A DNA stretch of 64,000 nucleotides, taken from an uncultured Gammaproteobacteria bacterium. GTDB taxonomy: Bacteria; Patescibacteriota; Microgenomatia; Daviesbacterales; UBA10151. The stretch covers positions 71,184 through 135,183 of the forward strand of contig CAYMRP010000004.1 in NCBI GenBank assembly GCA_964392925.1, in the 5' to 3' direction. The position numbers and the translations under genes were made by a program. Numbering within the stretch: the stretch's first letter is position 1; each line of letters starts with the position of its first letter. The notes beneath the pieces are model-generated. The model searched no databases and was not told where the DNA came from. It worked only from the letters and a program-made list of their open reading frames with translations. Positions 3,114-64,000 of this stretch are shown here, in pieces.

Positions 3114-3175
3114 CAATTTAACCATTTAACAATTCAGCAATTTAACCATTTAACAATTCAGCAATTTAACAATTA
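3114..3175. repeat. 24-bp tandem repeat, about 2.6 copies (CAATTTAACCATTTAACAATTCAG)
   Basis: Units at 3114-3137 and 3138-3161 are identical, with a partial third unit from 3162. The repeat lies between dsbA-like and the kinase gene. Confidence 0.85.
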
Positions 3176-3202
3176 ATTTATGCTATATTGTTACTACCTG
3201 CT

Positions 3203-32235: not shown

Positions 32236-32340
32236 ATACAACATCTAGTGTATTGACAGTTACCTAAGACAATATGTTAATCTTATTTTTACATTAATAC
32301 ATGTTGAGTCTTCAAGACCAATGAGGTACAATATGTTGTA
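32236..32340 (+). promoter_or_regulatory. Candidate NrdR-box region upstream of, and overlapping, the nrdR start
   Basis: ATACAACATCTAGTGTAT lies at 32236-32253. ACAATATGTT occurs twice (32269-32278 and 32328-32337). The last copy forms the near-palindrome TACAATATGTTGTA (32327-32340) that ends on the A of the ATG. The motifs resemble the acaCwAtATaTwGtgt consensus only in part. Confidence 0.35.
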
Positions 32341-32792
32341 TGTATTGCCCATTTTGCAGATCCTTACAGAGCAGTGTTATCGATAAAAGATCGGTAAAAG
32401 GCACTGGTGAAATTAGACGTAGAAGAGAGTGCCTGAAATGTAAAAGACGCTACACTACCTACGAACGGGCAAGCGCAGTCGAGTTATTAGTTATCAAGCG
32501 GGACGGTAGAAGACAGCCTTTTGATATTGAAAAACTCAGAATGGGACTTGAAAGATGTCTGGAAAAGCGTCCGGCTTATCAGAATCTAGATGTCATCCTG
32601 GCTAAACTTGAGCGTAAAATCCGCTCTAAGGAAGTAGCTGAGATTGACAGCAAGGTTATCGGTCGGGAAGTACTCGGAGAACTTAAAAAGCTGGACCAAA
32701 TAGCTTATTTAAGATTTGTTTCCGTTTACAGACAATTTAAGCAGGCCAGCGATTTTACAAAAGAACTCGCAAACCTGAAGCTAGAAGAGTAG
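32340..32792 (+). CDS. nrdR: NrdR transcriptional repressor (zinc ribbon plus ATP-cone)
   Basis: Contains MYCPFCRS...CLKCKRRYTTYE followed by an ATP-cone (VIKRDGRRQPF). Confidence 0.92.
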   Translation: MYCPFCRSLQSSVIDKRSVKGTGEIRRRRECLKCKRRYTTYERASAVELLVIKRDGRRQPFDIEKLRMGLERCLEKRPAYQNLDVILAKLERKIRSKEVAEIDSKVIGREVLGELKKLDQIAYLRFVSVYRQFKQASDFTKELANLKLEE

Positions 32793-32817
32793 AGTTCGTT
32801 GAAAGCTTCGCTTCCAA

Positions 32818-32852
32818 AAGAACTTGCCAACTTAAAATTAGAAGAATACTAA
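32818..32852 (+). repeat. In-frame, synonymously diverged duplicate of the nrdR C-terminal decapeptide (KELANLKLEE) downstream of the nrdR TAG
   Basis: Codons 32817-32846 encode KELANLKLEE, the same peptide as 32760-32789. They differ at 7 nt, all synonymous. The copy is in the nrdR frame and ends Y-TAA at 32847-32852. Confidence 0.8.
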
Positions 32853-32859
32853 AAATAAA

Positions 32860-35379
32860 ATGAAAAAACAAAATCAAAACAAAGCAGTCGCTCTACAAAT
32901 TCAAATCCCAGCAGATAACGCCAAAAAAGCCGAAATCAAAGATGTAAACAGAGCCTTTGATGAAGGAATACTTCCAAAAATCCGGACCAAAACTGAATTA
33001 GATGGTATCCGTCAAAAAGTCTTTATGGATCGCTACTCGCTTAAAGACGTTAACGGTGAACCAACCGAATTTATTCCAGAAGAAATGTGGCAAAGAGTCG
33101 CCGCTGGAATTGCTCAAATGGAAAAAACCCATCCTTTAAGAAAACATTGGGCAAAAGAGTTTTATTCTGCCATGGAAGGATTTAAATTCGTTCCAGCCGG
33201 CCGTATTCTCTCCGGTGCCGGCACGGGCTACGAAGTCACGTTCTTCAATTGCTATGTTATCCCTTCTCCCAAAGATTCAAGACAGGGCATCATGGAAAAC
33301 ATCACTCACACCGTAGAGATTCAGGCAAGAGGTGGAGGAGTTGGAATCAATCTTTCATCTTTAAGACCTCACGGTGCTCGTGTTAAAAAAGTTAACGGCA
33401 CATCCTCAGGACCAGTCTCTTGGGCAAAATTATATTCAGCCGCCAATCACGACGTTATTCAGCAGGGTGGTTCAAGACGCGGCGCTCTAATGCTCATGCT
33501 TCACGACTGGCATCCAGATGTTATTGAATTCATTCACGCCAAAGAAGATGGGGTTTCAATTCCCGGAGCTAATCTCTCAGTCTGTGTTTCTGATAAATTT
33601 ATGGAAGCCGTTCAAAAAGATGAAGAATGGGTAACTGTTTTTCCCGATGTTTCTGACCCTGAATATGATGAAAAATGGGATGGTGTTTTAGAAAATTGGA
33701 CAGAAATGGGTAAGCCAGTTATTGAATACACCAGAATGCCAGCTCGGGAAATTTGGGATCAAATCTGCACTTCAGCCTGGAAGTCCGCTGAGCCAGGTCT
33801 TCACTTCCTTGAGCGAAGCAATAAATGGGGAAATACTTGGTATTTTGAAAAATTACTCTCCACCAATCCTTGCGGTGAACAGCCTTTAGGTGAATGGGCA
33901 GTTTGTAACTTAGGCGCTATGAATCTCTCGGCTTTTGTTAATGATGAAGGGGTGTTCGATTATGACGATCTCGATGCTAAAGTCAGAGTCGCTATGAGAT
34001 TTATGGATAACGTTGTTGATGCCAACTATTATTTCTGGGAAGAGAACGAGAAAAAAGCTAAAGATATTAGAAGAACCGGCATCGGCACAATGGGCTTAGG
34101 TGATGCCTTAATCAAGATGAAACTTGCCTACGGTTCCGAAGATGCTCAACCAGTCATCGAAAAAATATATAAAACAATTAGAGATGCCTCTTATGACACA
34201 TCTTCTGACTTAGCCGCTGAAAAAGGCTCCTTCCCGATGTTTGACTCGGAAAAATATTTACAGGGCCATTTTATTAAACAGCTGCCTCAGCCAATCAGAA
34301 GCAAAATCCAAAATCAGGGCATTAGAAACGCTGTTATTTTAACTCAGGCTCCAACCGGAACTACCTCACTTCTAGCCGGTGTTTCCTCAGGAATCGAACC
34401 AGTTTTTGATTTCAAATTCACCAGAAAAGATCGAATAGGCGAGCACGTTATTTATCATCCGCTATACGAAGCCTGGATGAAGCAAAATCCTGGAGCTGAT
34501 CGCCCTCACTATTTCGTCGGCGCAAATGACATGAGTCCTATGGATCACGTTAAAGTCCAGGCTTTAATCCAGGGATACACTGATTCCTCGATTTCCAAAA
34601 CAGCCAACGCTCCTTTTGAATTCACAGTCGACCAGGTTAAAGAGCTTTATATGGAAGCATATAAATTAGGCTGCAAAGGGGTAACTTTCTTCAGAGACGG
34701 CTCAAGAACTGCCGTCTTAACTCATGGTGATGATAAAAAAACTGAGGTAGCCAAAGTAGAAATGAATTCTGCGACCACACAAGATACTGTCGTTTCTCGC
34801 CCAATGATCTTAAGAGGACGCACCTATAAAATGCAGACTCCAGTTGGAGAAGGTTTTATTACTATCAATCGTGATGAGCAAGATAATCCTTTTGAAGTCT
34901 TCATTACTGTTGGTAAAGGCGGAATGCACACAATGGCTGATGCTGAAGCAATGGGCCGTTTAGTTTCTCTATCCTTAAGACTCGCCAGAAGTGCTTCAAA
35001 CGCTGATCCTAAAACAGTTGCCCAAAAAATCTCGGCCCAACTCCGGGGAATTGGCGGCGCTTCCCACGTTGGATTCGGCAAAGATCGTGTTATGTCCTTA
35101 GCTGACGCTATTGCTAAAGCTTTAGCTGAAGATTTAGCAATAACCGCTGAAAATCCATCAGAAAAAATTGAAACTGTCCCTCTTAATTTAACAATGGAAA
35201 CAGAAACCGCTTCCCCAGTCGAAAATACTGGTGCAGATGATGTTATCACTTCTCAAATGCCGTTAATAACGGAATCTACTCAAAAAACCGCCGATCTTTG
35301 TCCGGAATGCGGACAGGCGAGTTTTGTATTCGAAGAGGGGTGCAAAAAATGCTACTCCTGCGGATACTCAATGTGTTAG
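32860..35379 (+). CDS. nrdJ: Class II (adenosylcobalamin-dependent) ribonucleotide reductase with a C-terminal Cys4 zinc finger
   Basis: Contains NPCGEQPL (catalytic Cys), TGTTS, SKT.N and the tail CPECG...CKKCYSCG. It is 839 aa and monomeric-type. Confidence 0.9.
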   Translation: MKKQNQNKAVALQIQIPADNAKKAEIKDVNRAFDEGILPKIRTKTELDGIRQKVFMDRYSLKDVNGEPTEFIPEEMWQRVAAGIAQMEKTHPLRKHWAKEFYSAMEGFKFVPAGRILSGAGTGYEVTFFNCYVIPSPKDSRQGIMENITHTVEIQARGGGVGINLSSLRPHGARVKKVNGTSSGPVSWAKLYSAANHDVIQQGGSRRGALMLMLHDWHPDVIEFIHAKEDGVSIPGANLSVCVSDKFMEAVQKDEEWVTVFPDVSDPEYDEKWDGVLENWTEMGKPVIEYTRMPAREIWDQICTSAWKSAEPGLHFLERSNKWGNTWYFEKLLSTNPCGEQPLGEWAVCNLGAMNLSAFVNDEGVFDYDDLDAKVRVAMRFMDNVVDANYYFWEENEKKAKDIRRTGIGTMGLGDALIKMKLAYGSEDAQPVIEKIYKTIRDASYDTSSDLAAEKGSFPMFDSEKYLQGHFIKQLPQPIRSKIQNQGIRNAVILTQAPTGTTSLLAGVSSGIEPVFDFKFTRKDRIGEHVIYHPLYEAWMKQNPGADRPHYFVGANDMSPMDHVKVQALIQGYTDSSISKTANAPFEFTVDQVKELYMEAYKLGCKGVTFFRDGSRTAVLTHGDDKKTEVAKVEMNSATTQDTVVSRPMILRGRTYKMQTPVGEGFITINRDEQDNPFEVFITVGKGGMHTMADAEAMGRLVSLSLRLARSASNADPKTVAQKISAQLRGIGGASHVGFGKDRVMSLADAIAKALAEDLAITAENPSEKIETVPLNLTMETETASPVENTGADDVITSQMPLITESTQKTADLCPECGQASFVFEEGCKKCYSCGYSMC

Positions 35380-35389
35380 TATCGAAAAA

Positions 35390-35534
35390 ATAAAGAAACT
35401 CCGAAGTTTGTGAAACTCAAACACTGTGCCGCAACCGTAATAGCCGGGTCGAAGGTTTCTTTGAAAGTGAATAAGTCTCACGAGCAATGAGGGTGATATT
35501 GAAAGTTACCTTCTCCAAAAGAGAAGGTTTTTTT
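35390..35534 (+). promoter_or_regulatory. Cobalamin riboswitch-like element with an intrinsic terminator
   Basis: GUGAAACUCAAACACUGUGCCGCAACCGUAA (35409-35440) parallels the conserved core GGUGnnAAUCCnnnnCnGnnCCCGCnACnGUAA (compare E. coli btuB GUGCGAAUCUGGAGCUGACGCGCAGCGGUAA). A closing helix AAAGAAAC (35392-35399) pairs with GUUUCUUU (35455-35462). A terminator follows at 35508-35534. The B12-box region is degenerate. Confidence 0.55.
35508..35534 (+). terminator. Intrinsic terminator (8-bp stem ACCTTCTC/GAGAAGGT, loop CAAAA, T-run)
   Basis: Read directly from the sequence. It lies inside the N-terminal extension of the track ORF that starts at 35487. Confidence 0.8.
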
Positions 35535-35600
35535 ATTTTCAAGCGAAAGCGAGAAAACAAAGTTTCTTTAACCCCAATTCTCCAAAGACTCCAAAATAAT

Positions 35601-36776
35601 ATGATTCAAGATTTAGAACAATATAGAAATAGGCGTGAAGTAACGAAGGCACCAATAATTAGCGGTGCGAATGCTTTAAAGTTGCAACCGCTTGTTGAAA
35701 TGACACCTCAGCTTAGGGTTGTTACTGAGCTTCCTGCTCCGATTCAAATAGACTCGTTCTTGAAAAGAAAAGTAGAGCCTCTTGCTGAAATCCCTAAAAC
35801 TCCAGAAGTCTTGGCAAGGCAACAGATAATAAATAATACAGCTGAAGCAGAGCCAGAGCGATTTATAGAAAGAGAAATTGACCCAGATAAGCCCTGGAGC
35901 GCCTTTGGACAAGTCATGTTTATAAAAGAGCATATTATTGATGGAAAATCAGTAAAGAAAATCGCTGCGATAAGTATGGCTTATCCAGGTGGGGTAGGAA
36001 CTAGAATGGCAGGGGAAGTGTTGAGTGAAACCGTCGGAATTAACCAATCTGAATTTGTAAGCTGGAAAGGTCAATCTGAAGGGGGGATTATAGCCGCAAG
36101 CAAAGAAGTTCAAAATATTACTGATCAATTTGGACTTATGGACGACTTTATTCAAAACTCCGGTTCAGTAATTAAAAACCGTCATGCTCAAGGTGAGCAC
36201 GAGGTGGTCCAGCACTTCTTCGGCCTGCAAGACACAAGGAAAGAATTTCTAGATACTGTTAAAGAAGATGCAGCTGCAATTTTAGAAAACCCTAATTTCA
36301 CGAGTAGGTCAGCGTTTGATGAGCGTTACAAGGACAAAGGTATTTACTTAATTGAAGGTATAGTGGTCGATGGAGTATGGGAAGGTGGAGATCCTCAGGG
36401 AAAAAGAATGCGTCTTGTTGATATGGCCGCAGATGAAGCACATCTAAAATGGTTGCAATGGGCTGAAAAAACAGCAAGCGAGATGAAAGGTGACGGAGTA
36501 ATTGTTGATGCAGAAGATACTGAGACAGTAACAGACTGCGGTGGAAATAAAGGATGCTCTGAATTCTTTGAAAAAATGGAAGGCAGCACATCTGAACCAA
36601 CCATCGATCTGAGCCGCTACTCTGTATCCACTGGAATAGCAGGCTCTATTGCTGCATCCGCATATTCAAAATCTCAGATTTCTGGAGGCGGAGCTCCAGC
36701 TTATGATAGTGAAAATTGCTCATCCTGCGGCAAAGACCGCTATAAAGAAGATGGCTGCAAATGCTCTACTAATTAA
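35601..36776 (+). CDS. Hypothetical 391-aa soluble protein with a Cys-rich C-terminal module
   Basis: The start is moved to the ATG at 35601 (MIQDLEQYRN) because 35487-35600 covers the riboswitch and terminator. No family is recognised. The tail reads DCGGNKGC...CSSCGKDRYKEDGCKC. Confidence 0.6.
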   Translation: MIQDLEQYRNRREVTKAPIISGANALKLQPLVEMTPQLRVVTELPAPIQIDSFLKRKVEPLAEIPKTPEVLARQQIINNTAEAEPERFIEREIDPDKPWSAFGQVMFIKEHIIDGKSVKKIAAISMAYPGGVGTRMAGEVLSETVGINQSEFVSWKGQSEGGIIAASKEVQNITDQFGLMDDFIQNSGSVIKNRHAQGEHEVVQHFFGLQDTRKEFLDTVKEDAAAILENPNFTSRSAFDERYKDKGIYLIEGIVVDGVWEGGDPQGKRMRLVDMAADEAHLKWLQWAEKTASEMKGDGVIVDAEDTETVTDCGGNKGCSEFFEKMEGSTSEPTIDLSRYSVSTGIAGSIAASAYSKSQISGGGAPAYDSENCSSCGKDRYKEDGCKCSTN

Positions 36777-36778
36777 TA

Positions 36779-37333
36779 ATGAAACCCAGCAAAAAATTTA
36801 AAGAAACAAAGCACGGTTTAACAATTATCTACACCGGTGAAGGCAAAGGTAAAACTACTGCCGCCTTAGGTTTGGCTTTACGTGCCGCAGGCTACAAAAG
36901 AAAAGTCTTAATTATCCAATTTGGCAAAACCTGGTTTTCAGGTGAGCTGGAAGGCATCAAAATGTTAAAGCCTTACGTCAAAATTATTCAGGGCGGTTTA
37001 GGTTTCGTTAAAATCTTTGATGACCAATCCGATATAAAAGACCACAAAAAAATGGCTCAGCAAACTTATGACCTATTATATAAGGAAGTTGTATCCGGAA
37101 ATTATGATGTAGTTATAGCAGATGAAATAGTTGGAGCAATTGCTGGAAAAATGGTCACCCAAAAACAAGTTATTCAACTAATAAAAGACAAACCTAAAAC
37201 CCTCGACTTGGTTTTAACCGGCCACCACGGCAAGCCTTCACTATTCAAACACGCCGATTTAGTAACCGAAATGATGCCAATAAAACACCCCTTCGAAAAA
37301 GGCTTCCTAGCTAAACCAGGAGTAGACTACTAA
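36779..37333 (+). CDS. btuR: Cob(I)yrinic acid a,c-diamide / cob(I)alamin adenosyltransferase (CobA/CobO/BtuR type)
   Basis: Contains LTIIYTGEGKGKTTAALG (P-loop of the CobA family), DE..GA and TGHH. The size is ~184 aa. Confidence 0.8.
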   Translation: MKPSKKFKETKHGLTIIYTGEGKGKTTAALGLALRAAGYKRKVLIIQFGKTWFSGELEGIKMLKPYVKIIQGGLGFVKIFDDQSDIKDHKKMAQQTYDLLYKEVVSGNYDVVIADEIVGAIAGKMVTQKQVIQLIKDKPKTLDLVLTGHHGKPSLFKHADLVTEMMPIKHPFEKGFLAKPGVDY

Positions 37334-41628: not shown

Positions 41629-43632
41629 ATGGGTTTTGAATTAACACCACAAATTTTAAATTACTTTATTTGGTCCGGCTCAATCGCCGCCACAGCTTAT
41701 GGACTCATTCTTGCTTGGTTAATCTTAAAACTCCCCACAGGTAACGACAAAATGAGGGAAATCGCCTCAGCAATTCAGGAAGGTGCTACCGCATATTTAA
41801 CCCGACAATACATGGTTATCTCCCTGGTTGCGCTAGTAATAACTGTCCTGATCGGTCTCTTCATCTCCTTAAATAGTGCAATCGGCTTCGTTATCGGTGC
41901 TTTATTCTCAGCTGTTGCCGGTCTCGTCGGTATGGTTGTAGCCGTTAGAGCAAATATCCGATGCGCTGAAGCTGCAAAAAAAGGTTTAGCTCAGGCATTT
42001 GATGTCGCCTTTAAAGGCGGAGCAGTCACAGGTTTTATAGTTGTTGGCTTGGCTTTAGGCGTAACTTATGGCTTTTACCAATATTCTCTCGATATCCCAG
42101 CTTTAGTTTCTTTAGGTTTTGGAGCTTCTTTGATCTCAGTTTTTGCTAGACTCGGTGGGGGAATCTATACTAAAGGCGCAGACGTTGGTGGTGACATGGT
42201 TGGTAAAGTTGAGGCCGGAATTCCGGAAGATGATCCTCGAAATCCTGCTGTTATTGCTGATCTTGTAGGCGATAATGTTGGTGACGATGCTGGAATGGCT
42301 GCTGATATTTTCGAGACTTATGTTGTGACTGCAATTGCCGCAATTCTGCTCGGTGAATTCTTAATCCCTGGCTCTGAAACAGTTATTTATTATCCTCTGG
42401 CATTAATGTCAGGCGGTATTTTTGCTTCAATTATTGGTTCATTCTTTGCCCGTCTCACAGGTGGCCGGATTATGGGTACTTTATATCAGGGTCTTGGCGT
42501 AGCTGTTGTTTTATCTGCAGTTTCTTTTTACTTTATTACTGATGCTATGTGGGCAGGCAACGCAATCTTCTCCTCGACAAACTTATTCCTGGCCAGCCTT
42601 GTTGGTTTAGCAGTTTCAGCCGGCATGATGATAATTACGGAGTATTACACAGGGACAAAGTATAGTCCTGTTCGTTCAATAGCTCAGGCTTCAGCAACTG
42701 GCCATGGCACTAATGTTATTGCAGGCCTCGCAGTTTCTATGAAATCTACCTTTGCTCCAATCATCTTAATCTGCGCCGCTACTCTAATCTCTTTCTTCTT
42801 AGCTGATCTCTATGGAGTCGCTATCGCTGCAGTTGCCATGTTATCTCTGGCTGGAATAGTTGTGGCTATCGATGCCTTTGGTCCGATAACTGATAACGCC
42901 GGAGGAATCGCCGAAATGAGCGGTATGCCTGCTAAAATCCGTGCGAGTGTGACTGATCCTTTGGATGCCGTTGGCAACACCACCAAAGCAGTCACCAAAG
43001 GTTATGCTATTGCCTCAGCCGGCCTCGCAGCACTAGTTCTCTTTGCAGCCTACACACAAGAACTAGGTTCAGGAGTTATATTTGCCCTTAATGATCCTAA
43101 AGTCTTAGTTGGATTATTTATTGGTGGCGCATTGCCTTATGTATTTGCCTCCTTTGCTATGGAAGCAGTGGGTAAAGCTGGACAAGCTGTTGTTGAAGAA
43201 GTCCGCCGTCAATTCAAACTTTACAAAGGCATTATGAAAGGCACTCAAAAACCAGATTACGCTGCCTGTGTTTCAATAGTTACTGCAGCTGCTCAAAAAG
43301 AAATGATTATCCCAACTCTAATCCCTGTCTTAGCTCCAATCATAGTTGGTCTTTTCTTAGGTCCTATCGCCTTAGGCGGAATGCTCGTCGGTATAATTAT
43401 CACTGGTTTATTCGTTGGTTTATCTATGACAACTGGCGGAGCCGCTTGGGATAACGCTAAAAAATATATTGAGCAAGGTAACTTAGGCGGCAAAGGCTCC
43501 TTCGCTCATCAATCAGCAGTCACTGGCGACACAGTCGGCGATCCTTATAAGGATACTGCCGGACCAGCCATCAACCCAATGATTAAAGTTGCAAACATTG
43601 TTGCCCTACTTCTAGTCGCTCTTCTCAAATAA
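41629..43632 (+). CDS. hppA: Membrane-integral H+-translocating pyrophosphatase, K+-independent-type signature
   Basis: Contains [29 protein letters not shown] and [13 protein letters not shown]. The Lys and Thr in GNTT[K]Axx[T]K are the published K+-independence determinants. Confidence 0.88.
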
Positions 43633-56300: not shown

Positions 56301-56723
56301 ATGATAAAAACAGCCAGCGAAATAGTTGACCAACTTAGAACCGAAGGTCACCGTATCACCCCGATTAGAAATCGGATTCTCGATATTCTCTCCAAGAGCA
56401 CAGAGCCTATTTCGGCATTAGATTTAATAGCAGACTTTAAATCCTCAAATCTTAACGTTAACAAAACCACCATCTACCGGGAAATAGAATTTTTATTAGG
56501 CAAAAATCTTATTAATGAAGTTGAATTTGGAGATGGCAAAAAAAGATACGAGATGGATAATGGGCATCACCATCACTTAGTTTGCTTAAAGTGTGGCAAA
56601 GTTGAAGATGTTAGTTTGGAGACGGATTTATCATCGGAAGAAAAAAAGATAGAAAAAGAAACAGGTTTTAAAGTTGAATCTCATTCATTAGAATTTTTTG
56701 GAATTTGTAAAACCTGCCAATAG
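56301..56723 (+). CDS. Fur-family metalloregulator (Fur/Zur/PerR not distinguishable)
   Basis: Has a winged helix, HHHHLVCLKCGKV and a C-terminal CKTC. Confidence 0.8.
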   Translation: MIKTASEIVDQLRTEGHRITPIRNRILDILSKSTEPISALDLIADFKSSNLNVNKTTIYREIEFLLGKNLINEVEFGDGKKRYEMDNGHHHHLVCLKCGKVEDVSLETDLSSEEKKIEKETGFKVESHSLEFFGICKTCQ

Positions 56724-56743
56724 AACTTTACTAAAGGTAAGTT
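56724..56743. promoter_or_regulatory. Imperfect 20-bp palindrome (AACTTtaCTAAAGgtAAGTT) between the Fur-family gene and the flavin operon
   Basis: 7 of 10 positions are self-complementary. It does not resemble the 7-1-7 Fur/Zur/PerR boxes. Confidence 0.2.
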
Positions 56744-56808
56744 GTTTACTAACAGCGATTTTCGTGCTAACTTAATCAAGTCAAATTCAAAACGAAAGGG
56801 GGTGTTTT

Positions 56809-57291
56809 ATGGAAGAACAAGTAAATACACAAGGCAGTTTGCCGAAGTTTGTAATGCCCACTGTTGTTGCAGCTCTAATAGTGTTCGCAGTTATCGGTTA
56901 TTATTTTTATAATTCCGGCTCAAATAACTCGTCTCAGCCAGCATCCACTATGGAAGGCCAAGGTTCTCCTGCAGCGGTTTCAGAAAGTAATTCGAATTAT
57001 AAAAATGGTACTTACACCATTAACGGGGAATACGTTAGCCCAGGAGGGCCCAGAGAAATTGGGGTAACTTTAACTTTGACTGATGGTTTAGTAACCGCAG
57101 CAGAGAGTCAGGTGCTCGCCGAGGATGCCACCTCTAAAAGATTCCAAACCGAGTTCGTTGAAGGTTTTAAACCAATGGTTATTGGTAAAAGTCTAAACGA
57201 AGTCGTTCTATCAAAAGTTTCGGGCTCATCTTTAACTCCTAAAGGATTTAATGATGCTGTCGAAAAGATTAAAGTTGAGGCTCAGTCTTAA
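56809..57291 (+). CDS. Membrane-anchored extracytoplasmic FMN-binding-domain protein (predicted ApbE substrate)
   Basis: Contains YKNGTYTINGEY...GVTLTLTDGLVT...SKVSGSSLTPKGFNDAVEKI. This parallels the FMN_bind layout, including the D/S-x-x-SGA[TS] flavinylation motif position. Confidence 0.65.
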   Translation: MEEQVNTQGSLPKFVMPTVVAALIVFAVIGYYFYNSGSNNSSQPASTMEGQGSPAAVSESNSNYKNGTYTINGEYVSPGGPREIGVTLTLTDGLVTAAESQVLAEDATSKRFQTEFVEGFKPMVIGKSLNEVVLSKVSGSSLTPKGFNDAVEKIKVEAQS

Positions 57292-58170
57292 ATGATTTGG
57301 GATCAAAAGTTTAATTTTGAAGAAATAGGAACCTCATGGACTATTGAATATTCAGGAGTCTCAAAACTTTCACCTGAATTACTTATAGAAAAGATCCGCG
57401 CAGAAATTAATAAATTCTCGCGGGTTTTTTCTAGGTTTGACAAAAATTCAGCGGTTTTTAAATCAAGTAAAACCGCATCTGAGATTATTATTCCGGAAGC
57501 TTATTTACCGCTTCTAGCTATCTATAAATCTTTATATAAATTAACTGACGGTTTATTCACTCCTCTTGTTGGAAATTTACTTTCTGAATCAGGCTACGAC
57601 GAAGATTATTCTCTGGTTCAAAAAAAATTAAATCCTGTTCCGCAGTGGGACCAAGTTATTGAGATTTCCGGAGAAACAATTAAATTTAAAAAGCCCTGGC
57701 TTCTAGATTTTGGCGCGGCCGGCAAAGGATTTATTGTTGATCTGATAGGGGAGTTGCTGGAAGATCAAAATATTAAGTCCTATTGTATAGATGCCGGCGG
57801 AGACATTCGCTATAAATCTGATAACAATGAAAAACTAAAAATCGGCCTTGAGCACCCCGATAATTTAGATCAGGTTCTTGGAGTTGCAGATCTAGAAACA
57901 GGTAGTATTTGCGGCTCATCTGGAAATCGCCGCAAATGGGCAAATCTTCACCATATTTTCAACCCTAAAAAACTTGATTCTGTTAGAGAAGTCCTGGCAG
58001 TTTGGGTAATTTCAGATACTACTTTAATAGCAGATGCTCTCTCGACAGCTTTATTCTTTGTAAACCCGGAAAAGCTTTTAGGAGATTTTAAGTTTCAATT
58101 TCTAATAATTTACCCGGATTTCACTTTTAAAAAATCCCCAAACTTCCCCGGTGAAGTATATGTGGCATGA
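57292..58170 (+). CDS. apbE: FAD:protein FMN transferase (ApbE family)
   Basis: Contains GT.W.I, FGAAGKGFIVD and CIDAGGDIRY. The ATG abuts the upstream TAA. Confidence 0.8.
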   Translation: MIWDQKFNFEEIGTSWTIEYSGVSKLSPELLIEKIRAEINKFSRVFSRFDKNSAVFKSSKTASEIIIPEAYLPLLAIYKSLYKLTDGLFTPLVGNLLSESGYDEDYSLVQKKLNPVPQWDQVIEISGETIKFKKPWLLDFGAAGKGFIVDLIGELLEDQNIKSYCIDAGGDIRYKSDNNEKLKIGLEHPDNLDQVLGVADLETGSICGSSGNRRKWANLHHIFNPKKLDSVREVLAVWVISDTTLIADALSTALFFVNPEKLLGDFKFQFLIIYPDFTFKKSPNFPGEVYVA

Positions 58171-58197
58171 GATGTCCAAGTCGGGTAAACTAGAATA

Positions 58198-59718
58198 ATG
58201 TACTTACTTAATAAAATTGATTCTCTTCTAAATTCAATCACCATGTACCGGCTGGTGCTATATGTATTACTAGTCCAATCCGCATTCGCAATAATTCTAG
58301 GTTTTCTAAATCTCCTACCTTATTCCGGAATCCAATTCACACTGACGCTTCTAGTTTTAGTCATAGTTAGTTATATATCCAATTTAATTTTTGCCTGGAC
58401 CGTCAAAGCCGTAGTTAACGTAGAGTCCTGGTTAATAACTGCCTTGATTCTTTTTTTAGTCCTGGCCCCGATAAATAATTTTCAGGATTTTATAGTCACC
58501 ACTGTTATCGCGATAGTGGCTATGGCTTCCAAATACTTTTTAACTTATGACAAAAGACATATCTTTAATCCGGCCGCTTTAGCTATGTTTCTAGCTAGCC
58601 TTTTCGGTTTCGGAAATTCTATTTGGTGGATTGGAAGTTCAATTATGCTGCCTGTCGTTTTAGTAACCGGCTTATTAATTGTTAGAAAAATTAGGAGATT
58701 TAGGTTAGTGATTATGTTCCTTGTCACAGCTGTCCTAACAGTCAGTGTCTTTAATTATTTAAATGGTATTCCTCTTACCCAAGCCTTAATCCAAGTTTTT
58801 ACATCTTGGCCTTTAATCTTTTTTGCAACGATTATGTTAACAGAGCCATTCACAACTCCTCCCAACAGAGAGTTCCGAAATTACTACGGAGTTTTTACTG
58901 GAGCATTATTTGGCTCTCAATTCTCAATCGGTCCTCTTTACGCTTCTCCAGAGCTCGCCCTAGTTGCCGGTAATTTTGTGTCATTTCTTTTAAGTCCTAA
59001 GGGTAAATTAATCCTTAAGTTTAAACAAAGAAACCAACTCGCTCCAACAATTTTCGAATTTATTTTTTCTCACAATGGGAAATATAATTTTACTCCTGGC
59101 GAATATTTAGAATGGACCCTGCCTCACCCAAATTCAGATTCAAGAGGTGTCAGAAGATATTTCACTATTGCCTCCTCCCCAGAAGAACCAGATTTAAAAC
59201 TTGGGGTTAAAATTATTCCTGATAAATCAAGTAGTTTTAAAAAAGCTCTCTTGGCTTTACAGCCCGGCAGTACACTTGCCGCCGACCAACTCTCGGGTGA
59301 TTTTGTCCTGCCTAAAAATCCCTCTCAAAAATTAGTTTTTATTGCTGGAGGAATCGGGGTAACTCCGTTTCGCAGTATGATTAATAGTCTAATTGTTAGT
59401 GGCGCAAAAAAGGACATAGTCCTTTTTTATAGCGCCGCAGATCCAAAAGAATTCGTCTATAAAGATATTTTCACTCAAGCAGAATCTTCCGGACTTAAAA
59501 CAGTTTATGTTTTTGGCGGTAAAGAAGTACCGCCTGATTGGCAAGGGGAGACAGGATTTCTAAATGAAGCAATGCTCAGAAAATATGTCCCTGATCTGAA
59601 AGAACGGAAATTCTATATGTCAGGTCCTGTCGCGATGGTTAACAATTATAAAGGCCTTCTGAAAACCCTAGGCATCTCCAACTCATCAATCGTTACCGAC
59701 TACTTCCCCGGCTTCTAG
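58198..59718 (+). CDS. Fusion of an RnfD/NqrB-like polytopic membrane domain with a ferredoxin-NAD(P)+ reductase-like FAD/NAD(P)-binding domain
   Basis: The N-terminal ~270 aa carry FNPAAL and IMLTEPFTTPP (compare FFMATDPVTSP of RnfD/NqrB). The C-terminal part carries RRYFTIASSP (RxY[ST]) and FIAGGIGVTPF (GGxGxxP). Confidence 0.7.
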   Translation: MYLLNKIDSLLNSITMYRLVLYVLLVQSAFAIILGFLNLLPYSGIQFTLTLLVLVIVSYISNLIFAWTVKAVVNVESWLITALILFLVLAPINNFQDFIVTTVIAIVAMASKYFLTYDKRHIFNPAALAMFLASLFGFGNSIWWIGSSIMLPVVLVTGLLIVRKIRRFRLVIMFLVTAVLTVSVFNYLNGIPLTQALIQVFTSWPLIFFATIMLTEPFTTPPNREFRNYYGVFTGALFGSQFSIGPLYASPELALVAGNFVSFLLSPKGKLILKFKQRNQLAPTIFEFIFSHNGKYNFTPGEYLEWTLPHPNSDSRGVRRYFTIASSPEEPDLKLGVKIIPDKSSSFKKALLALQPGSTLAADQLSGDFVLPKNPSQKLVFIAGGIGVTPFRSMINSLIVSGAKKDIVLFYSAADPKEFVYKDIFTQAESSGLKTVYVFGGKEVPPDWQGETGFLNEAMLRKYVPDLKERKFYMSGPVAMVNNYKGLLKTLGISNSSIVTDYFPGF

Positions 59719-59728
59719 TTATATTACG

Positions 59729-59785
59729 TTTCGAACGCAGTGAGAAAAACATGCTCTTCATATTTTTCGAGCATAGCGAGAAAAT
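59729..59785 (+). repeat. Copies 2 and 3 of the dispersed 21-nt motif (59729-59749 and 59765-59785)
   Basis: TTTCGAACGCAGTGAGAAAAA and TTTCGAGCATAGCGAGAAAAT closely match copy 1 at 2246. Confidence 0.6.
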
Positions 59786-59817
59786 ACTTTACTGTGTTTC
59801 GCTAACAAGTTAGAATA

Positions 59818-59864
59818 TTGACAAACGCCACAAAGTTGCATATACTTAATGCCACAAGGTTGCA
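59818..59864 (+). promoter_or_regulatory. Promoter TTGACA-17-TATACT flanked by two 14-bp direct repeats GCCACAA[A/G]GTTGCA
   Basis: TTGACA lies at 59818-59823 and TATACT at 59841-59846. The direct repeats lie at 59827-59840 and 59851-59864, 24 bp start to start, and the second ends 3 nt before the ATG. Confidence 0.6.
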
Positions 59865-59867
59865 ATT

Positions 59868-60857
59868 ATGGAAAGAAGAGAAGCCTCTAACGAACTAAAT
59901 AAATCACTAAACTCTGTTGGCTTAAGACTTGAAGGTGCCCCAAAAGTTATAATCCCTAAAACGCTTAGTGCTGAAATTCTGGCAGCAAAAGCCATCGCTA
60001 TGTCAGAAGACATGCAATATGGTTTTGATTTAGCAAATATAGTCACAGATCTCAGGCAATCTGCAATCAGAACCCTAAAAGACGGAAAGTCCTTTCCATT
60101 AGTACTGGATATACCAAACCTCGCAGATCCGAATTATGAACCTACTCCAGCTGATATTGCGCCTTCTTTGCTCGCCGCAAGTCTTGGAAGTTTTGCAATT
60201 GTCAGGATTGCTATGCCAAACTCAGATCACAGTATATCGCAGCTTTACGGAACAACTACACCCAGAACAAACATTGATGAGGGGGAACTGCAATTTACTT
60301 ACATCGGATTAAGAGTCTCGAGTAAGAGCGGTTATAAATGGGAGTCCCCCGCGCAAATAGATCCTTTAAGACCAGACCTGGTCTCTCCGGCCGATATGGA
60401 AACTTATTTATCAGGTGCAAATCAACTCGGCCTAGTTGGTGATCACGATAACTCAGGAATAAAAGTTTCAGATCCAAGACACTTAATAAATCTCCTCCAC
60501 GGCCTAGCAAATCCTGGACTTAGCGGACATTGGGCAGATGCACTTGAAAGTAATGGTCAAAGAAAACTTTTGACCGAAACATCAGCAAAAAGAATAATTG
60601 CCCCTAACGAGTTTGGCGACAGCTTGTATCAAGACCCCCTAAACACGACCCCTGTATTCACAATAGGTGCAGAGAGAATTCCCATGGCCATAGTTCTGGC
60701 CCCTGAACTTATGGAAGATATAGATTCTCTTGAAACCAGACGCAGTAATAAACCGGGAAGTCTTGAAACTTTGCAAGGAATGGCGCTCGCTGCACGTTTC
60801 GCGCAGAGATTAGGGGATAGCTTAGATCGGGCAATACCTAAAAGCGGAATGATTTAA
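59868..60857 (+). CDS. Hypothetical 329-aa soluble protein
   Basis: ORF with a strong promoter. No recognisable motif. Confidence 0.55.
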   Translation: MERREASNELNKSLNSVGLRLEGAPKVIIPKTLSAEILAAKAIAMSEDMQYGFDLANIVTDLRQSAIRTLKDGKSFPLVLDIPNLADPNYEPTPADIAPSLLAASLGSFAIVRIAMPNSDHSISQLYGTTTPRTNIDEGELQFTYIGLRVSSKSGYKWESPAQIDPLRPDLVSPADMETYLSGANQLGLVGDHDNSGIKVSDPRHLINLLHGLANPGLSGHWADALESNGQRKLLTETSAKRIIAPNEFGDSLYQDPLNTTPVFTIGAERIPMAIVLAPELMEDIDSLETRRSNKPGSLETLQGMALAARFAQRLGDSLDRAIPKSGMI

Positions 60858-60859
60858 CT

Positions 60860-61396
60860 ATGCTAGAGACAGCATCACCTAAAAAATTATTTGGAAAGAA
60901 AAAAATAGAATCTCAGGATATATCAACTCATTCTTTGGGAAACCCAATTCTAATAACAGAAACTCTCGACATTTTTAACCAAAGCCTGAGTGCCGAGATT
61001 ATAAAACAGGACCAGCAAATTACAGAGGTCCTTAAAAAAACATCAGATAACTTTATTAACTTCACAGGTCCTAAAGTTTTAGATTGGAATAAAAGTACTG
61101 GAAGAATAGCATTAGCAGAAAGTGTCATCAAAAATTCCGAAACCGAGTTTTTAGCATTCCGGCAAAGAATGACCGCTATGGCAGATGCTGATGGTTGCGG
61201 TGGTAAAAATGAAATTGCAAAATCTTCAGAGTCTGCTCTTTCTTCAAATGCGAATGTTATAGATTTTGGACAGGCGAAATTAAACAAAGCCTTAGGGATA
61301 AATAATAAACATACTCATAAATCAGGGGAACACGATCATTGTTCTCACGGCAATGATTACGGAGAATGCCCTAGCGGTTGTAAAAAAGCAGCCTAA
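60860..61396 (+). CDS. Hypothetical 178-aa protein with a His/Cys-rich C-terminal module
   Basis: Contains DGCGGKNE...VIDF...HTHKSGEHDHCSHGNDYGECPSGCKK, a layout like the tail of the 35601 ORF. The ATG lies 2 nt after the upstream stop. Confidence 0.55.
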   Translation: MLETASPKKLFGKKKIESQDISTHSLGNPILITETLDIFNQSLSAEIIKQDQQITEVLKKTSDNFINFTGPKVLDWNKSTGRIALAESVIKNSETEFLAFRQRMTAMADADGCGGKNEIAKSSESALSSNANVIDFGQAKLNKALGINNKHTHKSGEHDHCSHGNDYGECPSGCKKAA

Positions 61397-61417: not shown

Positions 61418-62497
61418 ATGAAAAAAATCCTAGCAGTACTTCTCCTTTTTCTTGCGTTACAAATATCTCCTGCTTTAGCTCAGGAAAACTTAGATCAGAC
61501 CATAAATTCCTCTGGGTATTCAACCCCGACCGATGAAATAAAACTTGAAGGTGTAGTTTTAGAAGATGGAAAAAAAGTCGAAGTGACCTCTCCTAACCGG
61601 CAGGGCGAAATTCTAAATACTGAGCAATCTTTTAATGCCCCTAATTCTCCGAGTTTTAAAAATGGTGATAAAGTAAAAGTTTCAATCTTTACGAATCCTG
61701 ATAACTCTCAGCAAATTTTCATTACTGATTTTATTAGAACCAGCCCGCTTTATTGGCTGTTCGGGTTATTTGTTTTGCTTGTTTTAATAATAGGAAAAAA
61801 ATCAGGACTCGGCTCGCTCGTCGGTATGGCTATATCTTTTGCAGTTCTATTCCTTTTTATTGTTCCCCAAATAACCGCCGGTCAAAATCCAATCTGGACT
61901 ACTTTAATTGGAGTATTATTTATTCTTCCTATAACTTTTTATCTATCCCACGGCATCAATAAAAAAACTACTATTGCTCTTGTTTCAACTTTTCTTTCTG
62001 TTTGTTTTACCAGTCTATTATCAATCTTCTTTATTAATACCGCCAAAATTTCCGGCTATGCTAGTGAACAGGCCGGCTTTATTCAAACTGCCAGAAGCGG
62101 AAGCTTCGATATTCAGGGATTATTATTTGCCGGAATTGTAATAAGCATAATTGGTATTCTGGATGATGTCACTATTTCTCAGGCCTCCATTGTTAATCAA
62201 CTGAAGATCGAACTACCAAAAGCTAAAGTGCTAGAGCTTTATAAAAAAGCTATGAATATTGGTCGCGATCATATTGGCTCTGTTGTAAATACGTTAATTC
62301 TTGTTTATGCCGGCGCATCCCTGCCGCTTTTAGTTTTATTCACAGACAGCAGTATTGGTTTTAACGAAGCGCTCAACAATGAAATAGTCGCCGAAGAAAT
62401 AGTAAAAACTCTGGTTGCCAGCATCGGACTTGTTCTATCAATTCCTTTGACCACAATTCTGGCTGCTTATTTTCTCAGTAATGACAAAGAAGCTTAA
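61418..62497 (+). CDS. YibE/F-family membrane protein
   Basis: Has a signal peptide, a soluble N-domain and a polytopic region with GILDDVTISQAS and MNIGRDHIGSVVNTL, as in the YibE/F family. Confidence 0.65.
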   Translation: MKKILAVLLLFLALQISPALAQENLDQTINSSGYSTPTDEIKLEGVVLEDGKKVEVTSPNRQGEILNTEQSFNAPNSPSFKNGDKVKVSIFTNPDNSQQIFITDFIRTSPLYWLFGLFVLLVLIIGKKSGLGSLVGMAISFAVLFLFIVPQITAGQNPIWTTLIGVLFILPITFYLSHGINKKTTIALVSTFLSVCFTSLLSIFFINTAKISGYASEQAGFIQTARSGSFDIQGLLFAGIVISIIGILDDVTISQASIVNQLKIELPKAKVLELYKKAMNIGRDHIGSVVNTLILVYAGASLPLLVLFTDSSIGFNEALNNEIVAEEIVKTLVASIGLVLSIPLTTILAAYFLSNDKEA

Positions 62498-62862
62498 GAA
62501 TTAATAATTGCTCTTGTCGCTTCAACATCCCTGGCCATTTGTGCAGTCAAATCTTTCTTATCAGGAAAATTCATAACTGGTCTTAAAAATTTAATAACTT
62601 CAACTTCGAATTCACGGGAATTCGGAATATCCGATTCCTTCGTATCAATTAAAAAGAACTCCAATGTTTTATCATCTTCTAAGAAAACCGGAATCGGCCC
62701 GTAATGCATTGCACCAATAAATTCTTTGTCTTCAATAAAAACTTTAACTGCATAAATTCCGTCATCTAAAATTAAGTCTGTTGGGATTTCTAAATTGATT
62801 GTTGGGAACCCTAAGATCTTCCCCCGGCCCTTCCCTTTAACTTGTGTGCTCTTAAACCTCAT
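62494..62862 (-). CDS. Monofunctional riboflavin kinase (RibF C-terminal-domain type)
   Basis: Contains GKGRGKILGFPTINL and GIYAV...GAMHYGP..., the riboflavin-kinase beta-barrel signature. No FAD-synthetase domain is attached. Confidence 0.8.
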   Translation of the reverse strand: MRFKSTQVKGKGRGKILGFPTINLEIPTDLILDDGIYAVKVFIEDKEFIGAMHYGPIPVFLEDDKTLEFFLIDTKESDIPNSREFEVEVIKFLRPVMNFPDKKDLTAQMARDVEATRAIINS

Positions 62863-63784
62863 GCTTTAATTGTAGTGAAGATAATCTCCAAATACTAAAC
62901 ATCAAAACCGCAGCTGCCAATAATTGAGTTGGAGCCAAGAATGTTTTATACAAAACTGCATCAATAATAATAGTTAACACCGGAAACACTAATTCCAAAA
63001 TAGTCGCCACCCTAACTGGAGTCTGTTTAAGACCTTTGTAATAGATAAGCAGTGCCACCATACCAGTCGATAAAGCAATAAATCCAAATTTTAGAAACTG
63101 CGAAAAATCTGGTGTAAACAATTGCGGCATCGCCCCTAGAAAAATAATAAATGGAATAGCCAAAATTGTTGTAAAAATAAATCGTAGTCCGGTAACTGTA
63201 TTAGAGTCATACTTTGTTAAAGCCATTTTAGAGAATGTTGTCGAAGTTCCCCAAGCAAACGCTGCTCCTAACGCAAATAAAGCTGCAGTTGCAGTTCCGC
63301 TGCCAGTCCCAAAATTAACCACCCCACCAGGGAAAGTGACAAAGTATGCAGCCGCAAATGCTAGGAGTGCCCAAGGTAAATAACTCTTTTTAATCGGTTC
63401 TTTAAGAAAAATTATCGCCGAGGAAATTGCAAAAATCGGCTGTAGTTTTTGGAGTAAAAATACGACAGAGAAAGGGATGAAGTTAACTTGCAAAAGTGCA
63501 GTTGTAAACCAAAGTGTACCTAATACACCGCTAAGCAACCCAATCACAATTAAAAGTAAAAATTCTTTCCGGGTTAAACGGACAGTAATTAATTTTTTCC
63601 AGATAAATGGAATTAAAATTAATAGTCCTATTAGATGCTCATAAAATACAATAATAATCGGCGGTAAAGAATAAAGGCTCCGTCTAACAACTCCGTCCAA
63701 AGCCCAAAGCACTGCTGCCGTAATAATTAATACTGGCCCTACTTTTAAAATATGTTTAATGAAGTGATTCATATAGATCCCCAC
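62852..63784 (-). CDS. EamA/DMT-family transporter (candidate riboflavin importer, RibN/ImpX-like by context)
   Basis: Has 10 TM spans in two EamA halves. The GTG start at 63784 lies 9 nt after AGGAG (alternative ATG at 63772). The gene overlaps the riboflavin kinase by 11 nt and lies downstream of the FMN riboswitch. Confidence 0.7.
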   Translation of the reverse strand: MGIYMNHFIKHILKVGPVLIITAAVLWALDGVVRRSLYSLPPIIIVFYEHLIGLLILIPFIWKKLITVRLTRKEFLLLIVIGLLSGVLGTLWFTTALLQVNFIPFSVVFLLQKLQPIFAISSAIIFLKEPIKKSYLPWALLAFAAAYFVTFPGGVVNFGTGSGTATAALFALGAAFAWGTSTTFSKMALTKYDSNTVTGLRFIFTTILAIPFIIFLGAMPQLFTPDFSQFLKFGFIALSTGMVALLIYYKGLKQTPVRVATILELVFPVLTIIIDAVLYKTFLAPTQLLAAAVLMFSIWRLSSLQLKHEV

Positions 63785-63846
63785 ATCGCTCCGCTCCTCA
63801 GGATGACAAATTGAATTTTAAATTTTATTCCATTTGTCAATTTTCC

Positions 63847-63873
63847 AAAAAAAATCCCCGACAAAATCGGGGG
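63847..63873 (-). terminator. Intrinsic terminator of the FMN-riboswitch expression platform
   Basis: The minus strand reads CCCCGA-UUUUG-UCGGGG followed by A and U8. Confidence 0.8.
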
Positions 63874-64000
63874 TAAATTTTGCACATCAAATGCGCAGCC
63901 TTCTTTCACTCCACTTGCGCCTAATGGCTTGGTGGAGTGTTCCGCACAGCTTTATTAAAAGCGACGTGGAACATCCGGACTATACCGTCGACTTTGGAAT
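63847..64000 (-). promoter_or_regulatory. FMN riboswitch (RFN element), 3' part only, plus expression platform; the 5' part lies beyond the window
   Basis: Minus strand 64000 to 63970 reads AUUCCAAAGUCGACGGUAUAGUCCGGAUG. The conserved RFN 3' core is AUUCCrrrGCCGACaGUnnAAGUCUGGAUG (compare B. subtilis ribD GCCGACAGUGAAAGUCUGGAUG). An 8-bp hairpin (CACUCCAC/GUGGAGUG) and the terminator follow. Confidence 0.75.

Follow-up and report, generated by a model that had tools for sequence, protein, structure and literature searches.

RFN elements, the riboswitches for flavin mononucleotide (FMN), are known from the leaders of Bacillus subtilis ribD and ypaA (ribU) and of Fusobacterium nucleatum impX (PDB code 3F2Q). 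The nucleotides contacting FMN in 3F2Q are G10, G11, G32, G62, G84, A48, A85 and A99, the last of which hydrogen-bonds the isoalloxazine ring (PMC6298564, PMC7573352), and the contact with the guanines of J1/2 is accompanied by stabilisation of P1 (PMC6298564). Two riboflavin importers are likewise associated with FMN riboswitches: ImpX, of F. nucleatum and Desulfitobacterium hafniense, which has been validated by complementation, and RibN, of Rhizobium leguminosarum and Vibrio cholerae, whose gene has an FMN riboswitch upstream in alpha-proteobacteria (PMC4418817). We describe here a comparable locus at the far edge of a 64,000-nucleotide stretch of contig CAYMRP010000004.1 (assembly GCA_964392925.1, positions 71,184 to 135,183), hereafter the window, whose minus strand runs from the cut end of an FMN aptamer into genes for an EamA/DMT transporter and a riboflavin kinase. 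Patescibacteria, the candidate phyla radiation (CPR), lack most cofactor biosynthesis and are thought to scavenge all their cofactors, and the routes by which vitamins reach them are largely unknown.

The locus resembles both importers in part. ImpX shares with it the control of a riboflavin importer by an FMN riboswitch, but is usually monocistronic and is found in riboflavin-making bacteria only; RibN, unlike the CPR family, has been reported in Proteobacteria only and without kinase pairing (PMC4418817), a separation made by description and not by sequence. The preliminary description of this DNA had cited RibN and ImpX alike as DMT-family proteins. That holds for RibN, which a passage of PMC10557607 cites, like the window protein, among EamA (PF00892) proteins. 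It is doubtful for ImpX: RFT2/SLC52 has been called its distant homologue (PMC4418817) and the SLC52 fold is of an atypical, ENT1-like MFS type (PMC12044054), whereas the window protein matches EamA only in Pfam. Judged from these family relationships, no ImpX sequence having been compared, ImpX is probably not a DMT protein.

We consider it highly probable that the window edge cuts a genuine FMN riboswitch, and that this is a transcriptional OFF switch for a riboflavin import-and-trapping operon in Patescibacteria of the Microgenomates type. The observations on which we draw are the match in sequence and structure, the terminator, the domain identities, the comparative associations and the pattern of conservation. 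The operon had previously been read as FMN-repressed riboflavin import plus phosphorylation, and this gains support from complete aptamers at orthologous loci (75-105 bits against RF00050), from adjacency of the kinase gene in 65 of 80 genomes and from in-frame fusions of the two proteins.

The aptamer at the window edge

Read on the minus strand from 64000 downward, the window opens with AUUCCAAAGUCGACGGUAUAGUCCGGAUG. A permissive cmscan of positions 63700-64000 matched this end to the FMN family RF00050 (64000..63959 on the minus strand; 23.3 bits and E = 0.0021 over model positions 97-138, with the 5' side flagged as truncated), and no other match in that region had E < 0.01. At the gathering threshold, an Rfam scan of the whole window returned tRNA alone, as expected since the element is a fragment. 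The RFN 3' core noted earlier at the window end thus matches the model base for base (Table 1), although the string then quoted comprises 29 nucleotides (nt) and not 31. Retained within 63972-64000 are the 3' strand of P5 (UUCCAAA), the CG closing P2a, P6 (CGG-UAUAGU-CCG) and the start of J6/1 (GAUG); the nucleotides corresponding to G84/A85 and G98/A99 of the pocket fall inside this fragment.

For the unseen 5' half, the 542-kb wastewater contig L088 (with L089: ENA/Logan ERR977425) was employed as a stand-in. This contig, together with L090/L091 (JGI 3300005130 / SRR5165157) and L092 (JGI 3300043411), was reached through the 90 % cluster of a close homologue of the transporter. Gene order in L088 is that of the window, namely SecA, FUR, the open reading frame (ORF) ORF160, ApbE, an NQR/RNF-like protein, two unknown ORFs and YibE/F, followed by the kinase and EamA genes on the other strand; the leaders are identical at 228 of 228 nt and the coding regions about 3 % different. 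Upstream of the point at which the window ends, L088 contains P1 (CAUCCUUC), J1/2 (GGGG), P2-P5 and a TTGACA-17-TAACAT promoter, and its aptamer core matches RF00050 model positions 11-128 with E = 8.8e-13. The 5' half of the aptamer, on which the preliminary description had hinged, is therefore present in a contig whose leader is identical to that of the window.

Complete aptamers also lie directly upstream of the transporter gene in less similar relatives. In L002, whose transporter is 98 % identical in protein and whose aptamer is free of the insertion described below, the match covers the full model (positions 1-138, 93.0 bits); in L003, with a transporter 89 % identical, the aptamer is again complete (100.3 bits). 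Helices P2-P6 and the conserved junction sequence fit the RF00050 covariance model. P1 is formed by CCUUC/GAAGG, extended by A-U and C-G pairs, in L088, L090, L092 and L002, while in the window just its 3' strand is visible. Compared by segment, and not position by position to 3F2Q, the FMN-contacting parts of L088 and L002 fit the upper-case consensus (GGGG of J1/2, CGG before P3, GCGAG, CGAC and GGAUG), and none of the G-to-A changes of variant FMN-like subtypes was seen in these segments.

Exact scans of genome and metagenome contig collections with the 40 nt at the window edge gave no match, nor did exact-protein look-ups of the window transporter with either start codon. The window and L088 share a mismatch-free run of 400 nt (63601-64000) that spans the leader and reaches ~170 nt into the transporter gene, beyond which the rest of the operon is ~3 % different and the YibE/F gene 6 %. 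The run may be a recent recombination tract. Because it enters the coding region in this way, the identity of the leaders was not counted as evidence of selection, and comparisons were made between L088 and L092 instead.

Expression platform and the insertion in J6/1

Downstream of the aptamer, the terminator with U8 noted in the preliminary description was recovered by the terminator scan (hairpin CCCCGAUUUUGUCGGGG; scan string CCCCGAttttgTCGGGG plus U8). Its 5' arm, CCCCGA, is complementary to UCGGGG of J1/2, which offers an alternative, anti-terminator pairing. When transcripts ending short of the 3' arm are folded with RNAfold, pairing of the 5' arm with J1/2 reaches a summed probability of 5.7-6.0 of 6 and that of P1 falls to ~0, the result being the same with and without the insertion. 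Minimum free energy (MFE) folds of the full-length leader show aptamer and terminator in L002, L008, L010, L088 and L092, and the anti-terminated form in L003 and L009. Between P1 and terminator stands a further, platform hairpin, which covaries in orthologues (GAUACA/UGUAUC in L010, GCGCAC/GUGUGC in L009).

Since FMN contacts J1/2 and stabilises P1, its binding should free the terminator arm, giving an OFF switch. At high cytoplasmic FMN the ligand would bind the six-helix junction and fix P1 (CCUUC/GAAGG) and J1/2 (GGGG); the CCCCGA arm, left free, would pair with UCGGGG, and the resulting terminator hairpin with its U8 would stop transcription. At low FMN the 5' segment CUUCGGGG would instead pair with CCCCGA as an anti-terminator and polymerase would read through. 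The permease, with ten transmembrane (TM) segments, would most likely import riboflavin, which the monofunctional kinase of 122 residues would turn into FMN and so trap in the cell, and this product, being the riboswitch's own ligand, would close a feedback loop.

A different expression platform appears to be in use at five Roizmanbacteria-like loci (L018 2809-3000, L019 2833-3000, L022 2829-3000, L035 2832-3000 and L039 2824-3000). There the kinase gene is divergent, the aptamer faces the transporter gene and is followed by AAAGAAGGAGAGnnCUUCUUUUGUGCCCCCGAAUAUU, and there is no G+C-rich hairpin plus U-run.

The most unusual feature of the window aptamer is a 65-nt insertion in J6/1, made up of two abutting hairpins. 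It begins immediately after GGAUG, with UUCCACGUCGC, and, as TG stands at both of its ends, its boundary is ambiguous by 2 nt; the site lies 0-2 nt 3' of the adenine equivalent to A99. The first hairpin, H1 (63973-63938), is closed by UGUUCC...GGAACA and has an inner stem GCUUU/AAAGC, and the second, H2 (63937-63909), is closed by CUCCAC...GUGGAG with an inner stem GCC/GGC. The 8-bp hairpin that had been placed after the RFN core belongs to this insertion; GGAUG and the terminator are separated by three hairpins and not by one. Similarly, the placing of UUCCACGUCGC on the 3' strand of P1 by cmscan is an artefact, since the hit is truncated and the insertion is absent from L002. The true 3' strand, GAAGG, is at 63903-63899, displaced by 65 nt from P6, its partner CAUCCUUC being beyond the window edge; CCUUC/GAAGG is recovered in unconstrained MFE folds of L088 and L092. 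Unconstrained RNAfold also places both insert hairpins inside the P1-closed junction, and as they leave no unpaired ends, J6/1 still reads GGA^UGAAAGAAGG, as in L002.

Real and old, the insertion recurs across four independent datasets (the window, L088/L089, L090/L091 and L092) and is absent from L002 and all 11 other complete aptamers of the family. The window, L088, L090, L092 and L002 form one clade, with operon divergence of no more than 10 %, containing three sub-lineages about equally distant from each other: window/L088/L090 and L092, both with the insertion, and L002, without it. Comparison of L088 with L092 shows 1 difference in the 155 positions of aptamer core, P1 and platform hairpin and 11 in the 65 of the insert (Fisher p = 7e-6 for the contrast of core and insert); for comparison, third codon positions of the transporter gene differ by 22.5 %. 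The differences in the insert are distributed such that its stems are kept: from L088 to L092, CUCCAC/GUGGAG of H2 becomes CUUCGC/GCGGAG, including one compensatory change from A-U to G-C; pairs also change from C-G to U-G and from G-C to G-U. The insert is evolving near the neutral rate while keeping its stems, and hardly any change is seen in the aptamer core. The module seems to loop out of the junction as a tolerated expansion, without inactivating the switch. It might even have been put to use by the aptamer, for example in tuning folding kinetics or in binding a partner.

As to the origin of the insert, an assembly artefact is ruled out by its occurrence, with sequence variation, in the four datasets. 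A repeated mobile element is unsupported, blastn-short having found no second copy in the window or in L001-L007, and a derivation from an element outside the compared sequences is conceivable. A known small RNA or ribozyme is likewise unsupported, no Rfam family matching at E <= 10, and the insert core had no match in the viral contig collection. A gapped scan of metagenome contigs for the J6/1 pattern found no match and is uninformative, since the fitting contigs L090 and L092 are evidently outside that collection, a null result from which is no evidence of absence. A second expansion, a 17-nt hairpin in loop L2 (GGCAUGAGAAAUCUGCU; L088 9700-9716, beyond the window edge) whose first base is polymorphic (G/A), is common to all five strains of the clade, including L002 which has no J6/1 insertion.

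Between terminator and start codon lies a second lineage-specific segment (Table 1), containing the inverted repeat TGACAAAT/ATTTGTCA and the motif TGTCATCCTGAGGAGCGGAGCGATGTGGGGATC. The AGGAG and GTG (63784) that had been taken for the transporter start fall inside this segment, while the N-termini of 11 homologues point to ATG 63772: all homologues begin at its equivalent, at a length of ~306 residues. To judge from this alignment of N-termini, the start is most likely ATG 63772 and not GTG 63784. In the window lineage the segment also replaces the first four transporter codons (MNHFI vs MEKFF). Unrelated inserts occupy the same spot in L003 (577-650), L010 (~2925-3000) and L011 (~235-267). 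The inserts before the start codon share a 'GTCATYC...GGATC' motif, often by a short inverted repeat, and look like small palindromic elements of one family, landing there repeatedly.

Table 1. Coordinates of the leader, the operon and the neighbouring flavin-related genes in the window
Feature	Position	Strand	Basis or comparison
FMN aptamer, 3' part	63972..64000	-	RF00050 model 97-125 base for base; equals L088 9773-9801 in full aptamer
J6/1 insertion, 65 nt, two abutting hairpins	63907..63971	-	Pairwise alignment with L002; RNAfold
J6/1 remainder (UGAAA) and true P1 3' strand GAAGG(CUG)	63896..63908	-	Identical in L002, L088, L090, L092
Platform hairpin UGCGCAU-UUG-AUGUGCA, between P1 and terminator	63881..63897	-	RNAfold
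Intrinsic terminator, CCCCGA(U)-UUU-(G)UCGGGG, then A + U8	63847..63872	-	Terminator scan
Second lineage-specific segment, terminator to start codon	63773..63846	-	Absent from L002, L092; present in L088, L090
EamA/DMT transporter, 306 residues, 2 x 5 TM; candidate riboflavin importer	62852..63772	-	Pfam; 11 homologue N-termini; hydropathy
Stand-alone riboflavin kinase, 122 residues	62494..62862	-	Pfam PF01687
ApbE	57292-58170	+	Neighbour cluster
NqrB/RnfD-like protein fused to NAD-binding domain	58198-59718	+	Neighbour cluster

Transporter, kinase and gene neighbourhood

Both proteins of the operon are essentially as the preliminary description had them. The transporter contains two EamA domains (PF00892, 6.3e-35, 120.8 bits), and its hydropathy peaks fit a 2 x 5 arrangement of about 10 TM segments. 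In NCBIfam it found only sub-threshold matches, to YedA and to TIGR00950 (66 bits, against a cut-off of 230 bits), and nothing curated for substrate. A phmmer search of PDB chains returned the DMT permease LicB alone at E <= 1 (E = 0.032) and no RFVT chain, the presence of RFVT2/3 in the PDB set being assumed; with EamA as the one Pfam match, this hints that the window protein lies outside the ImpX family. The closest named genome, by the transporter, is a Candidatus Daviesbacteria metagenome-assembled genome. The kinase matches Flavokinase (PF01687) over profile positions 6-123 of 124 (5.5e-26, 91.7 bits against a cut-off of 19.6), and the motif GxGRGxxLGFPT(I/A)N is visible in its sequence. 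No FMN adenylyltransferase is fused to it: the NCBIfam RibF models are matched by their C-terminal kinase half alone (~175-320), far below their cut-offs. The overlap of the two genes is exactly the 11 nt reported earlier (62852-62862), with the kinase ATG at 62862 and the transporter stop at 62854-62852.

The wider association was assessed in 80 species-level Patescibacteria genomes with the transporter gene, across which the transporter family is highly conserved. Among the 65 directly adjacent pairs, kinase and transporter genes share a strand with the kinase downstream in 39 and upstream in 18; they diverge in 7 and converge in 1. An FMN riboswitch at gathering score lies upstream of the transporter gene in 9 of the 80, in Microgenomates-like lineages alone (four in the window's clade, the other five being the Roizmanbacteria-like loci). 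The transporter family thus has the riboswitch association whose absence would have counted against the preliminary description, and a flavin association as well.

In other genomes the two genes are joined in frame, giving EamA-Flavokinase proteins of 424-428 residues (L025 746-2032, L061 ~2870-4153, L062 849-2123); Pfam confirmed both domains in the two that were scanned, L025 and L062. Among the best 120 hits to one fusion, 88 carry both domains, down to 47 % identity, with sources in Gottesman-, Komeili-, Lipton- and Paceibacteria that label them 'EamA family transporter' or DMT permease. Fusion proteins of this kind, 409-519 residues long, are common across Patescibacteria. All fusions seen have the kinase domain at the C-terminal end, which in 10-TM DMT proteins is expected to be cytoplasmic, and the arrangement therefore fits phosphorylation of an imported substrate. 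Elsewhere in the loci compared the kinase ORFs are stand-alone, of 106-156 residues, the exceptions being two short fragments (61 and 100 residues). Kinases upstream of the transporter are not the C-terminal halves of RibF, their ORFs having 106-143 residues.

Riboflavin import by the permease, with trapping by the kinase, is the function best supported when riboswitch control, the conserved adjacency and the fusions are considered together. Permease and kinase would act as one uptake-and-trap unit, which in many lineages is a single polypeptide. We see an even chance that this EamA subfamily with its adjacent or fused kinase is the main vitamin B2 acquisition device of Patescibacteria, and an as yet undescribed family of riboflavin transporters, and that the J6/1 module exemplifies an aptamer tolerating a large structured expansion by its pocket. 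The open-access literature searched contained no account of this CPR system or the permease-kinase fusion.

On the plus strand at 56301-61396 are encoded FUR, an unknown 160-residue ORF, ApbE, a 506-residue NqrB/RnfD-like and NAD-binding fusion, and two unknown ORFs (329 and 178 residues), after which a YibE/F gene (61418-62497) converges on the kinase gene. L004 and L088 have the ApbE region in the same arrangement, and L005 has it in part. ApbE clusters of this type are the 'NQR/RNF-like system' known from CPR and Actinobacteria (PMC8238504); their link to the operon is only positional. Elsewhere in the window an FAD-linked oxidase (8152-9834, minus strand) implies a need for flavin adenine dinucleotide (FAD), and no riboflavin-biosynthesis or FMN adenylyltransferase domain was found in the 57 ORFs of at least 90 residues in these 64 kb. 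Plus-strand genes at 32340-37333 encode NrdR, a ribonucleotide reductase with a TSCPD domain, probably B12-dependent, and a corrinoid adenosyltransferase, and at 41629-43632 an H+-pyrophosphatase. The window genes point to further cofactor needs (FAD, B12), biosynthesis genes for which are not visible in the window.

Alternatives and relation to known systems

Several points weigh against reading the locus as an FMN-controlled riboflavin import operon. The 5' half of the window's own aptamer is not visible and is taken by inference from L088. The complete insertion-bearing element, that of L088, scores 58.3 bits, below the RF00050 gathering cut-off of 66.2 bits; this arises because the insertion drops P1 from the model alignment, and the cut-off is an operational and not a structural criterion. 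The insertion stands directly beside the ligand-contacting equivalent of A99, where disruption is conceivable. The anti-terminator pairing, itself a prediction, lacks clean covariation, J1/2 of L010 reading UCAGGG against a CCCCGA arm. The transporter's nearest NCBIfam models, TIGR00950 and YedA, are far below cut-off, and many characterised EamA/DMT proteins are exporters. Finally, 71 of the 80 genomes have no FMN riboswitch upstream of the transporter, so the riboswitch evidence covers part of the family; for all of its members FMN binding, termination, and the direction and substrate of transport are predictions from sequence.

If the insertion by A99 and across P1 had abolished FMN binding, the riboswitch of the window lineage would be dead, the operon constitutive or always terminated and the aptamer a relic. 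Such a view could draw on the splitting of J6/1 within 0-2 nt of a ligand-contacting adenine, on the 65 nt that separate P6 from the P1 3' strand, on the fall in Rfam score from 93.0 to 58.3 bits, under the gathering cut-off, and on the absence of anything at this site in 11 other complete aptamers. A dead aptamer should, however, drift like the insert, and its core, P1 and platform have instead remained nearly invariant after the insertion (1/155 vs 11/65 in the insert, with synonymous sites at ~22 %, between L088 and L092). Moreover, the insert consists of two self-contained hairpins without unpaired ends, which leave J6/1 as in L002, and compensatory change maintains their stems. We therefore regard a dead switch as unlikely and retain an active one.

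The main rival for the function of the operon makes the EamA protein an exporter of riboflavin, FMN or FAD, supplying the extracytosolic ApbE and NQR/RNF-like protein ~3-6 kb away with a flavin made by the kinase. EamA/DMT proteins that export are common, and ApbE and the NqrB/RnfD-NAD-binding fusion do adjoin the pair in the window, L004, L005 and L088. The cluster is of the 'NQR/RNF-like system' type (PMC8238504), and extracytosolic flavinylation needs flavin outside the membrane. Neither the OFF logic nor the kinase coupling, however, sits well with this rival. OFF control suits supply genes, an exporter being expected to be induced, and not repressed, by high FMN; a cytoplasmic, C-terminal kinase fused to the permease fits the trapping of incoming riboflavin; the donor for ApbE is FAD, which this kinase does not make; and the pair occurs in many genomes with no adjoining ApbE cluster, SecA following directly in L006 and L007. 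Export is thus quite improbable. It is more improbable still that riboflavin is not what the permease carries, its substrate being for instance a flavin analogue, lumichrome or some unrelated metabolite, and that its association with flavin genes is only indirect. No curated family gives a substrate for the protein (only the sub-threshold TIGR00950, at 66 against 230 bits, and YedA), and rare FMN-like riboswitch variants do control transporters of other flavin-related compounds (PMC6298564). Against this, the aptamer keeps the canonical guanines that contact phosphate and ribityl, and not the G-to-A changes of the variants (PMC6298564), and the permease is paired, through adjacency in 65 of 80 genomes and fusion in many lineages, with an enzyme whose substrate is riboflavin itself, a riboflavin kinase.

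An uptake-and-trap operon under FMN control would have several consequences. It would offer Patescibacteria a concrete and widely conserved candidate system for vitamin B2, hitherto labelled in databases just as 'EamA family transporter' or 'DMT permease'. That permease and kinase are so often fused in nature constitutes a clean Rosetta-stone argument for the substrate, and suggests that metabolic trapping drives uptake. For RNA biology the aptamer with its insertion amounts to a natural experiment, in which a conserved riboswitch known as an antibiotic target has acquired 65 extra nt by its pocket and strong purifying selection persists; if this is correct, a sizeable structured expansion immediately next to the ligand pocket can be tolerated by an FMN aptamer.

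Compared with known RFN leaders, those of B. subtilis and F. nucleatum, the window type is alike in its six-helix junction and conserved junction nucleotides, in having an intrinsic terminator and a flavin supply gene downstream, and in an OFF logic predicted to operate through competition between P1/J1-2 and a terminator arm. It differs in the 65-nt J6/1 insertion, the 17-nt L2 hairpin, the extra conserved hairpin between P1 and terminator, and a score of 58.3 bits, which means that Rfam annotation at the gathering threshold (66.2 bits) misses insertion-bearing elements. The variant FMN-like riboswitches of Clostridioides difficile are also FMN-type aptamers upstream of transporter genes, but they carry mutations in the guanines contacting phosphate and ribityl and control efflux pumps (PMC6298564), whereas the window type combines a canonical pocket with an insertion. 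The kinase shares the Flavokinase domain (PF01687), matched almost end to end, with the bifunctional RibF/RibC and with monofunctional kinases (eukaryotic Fmn1 and B. subtilis RibR); unlike RibF/RibC it lacks the N-terminal adenylyltransferase, has only 122 residues, and is translationally coupled or, elsewhere, fused to a permease. An FMN-riboswitch-controlled riboflavin operon is therefore of a known kind, while the J6/1 and L2 expansions and the CPR-wide, often fused permease-kinase module are new variants of it.

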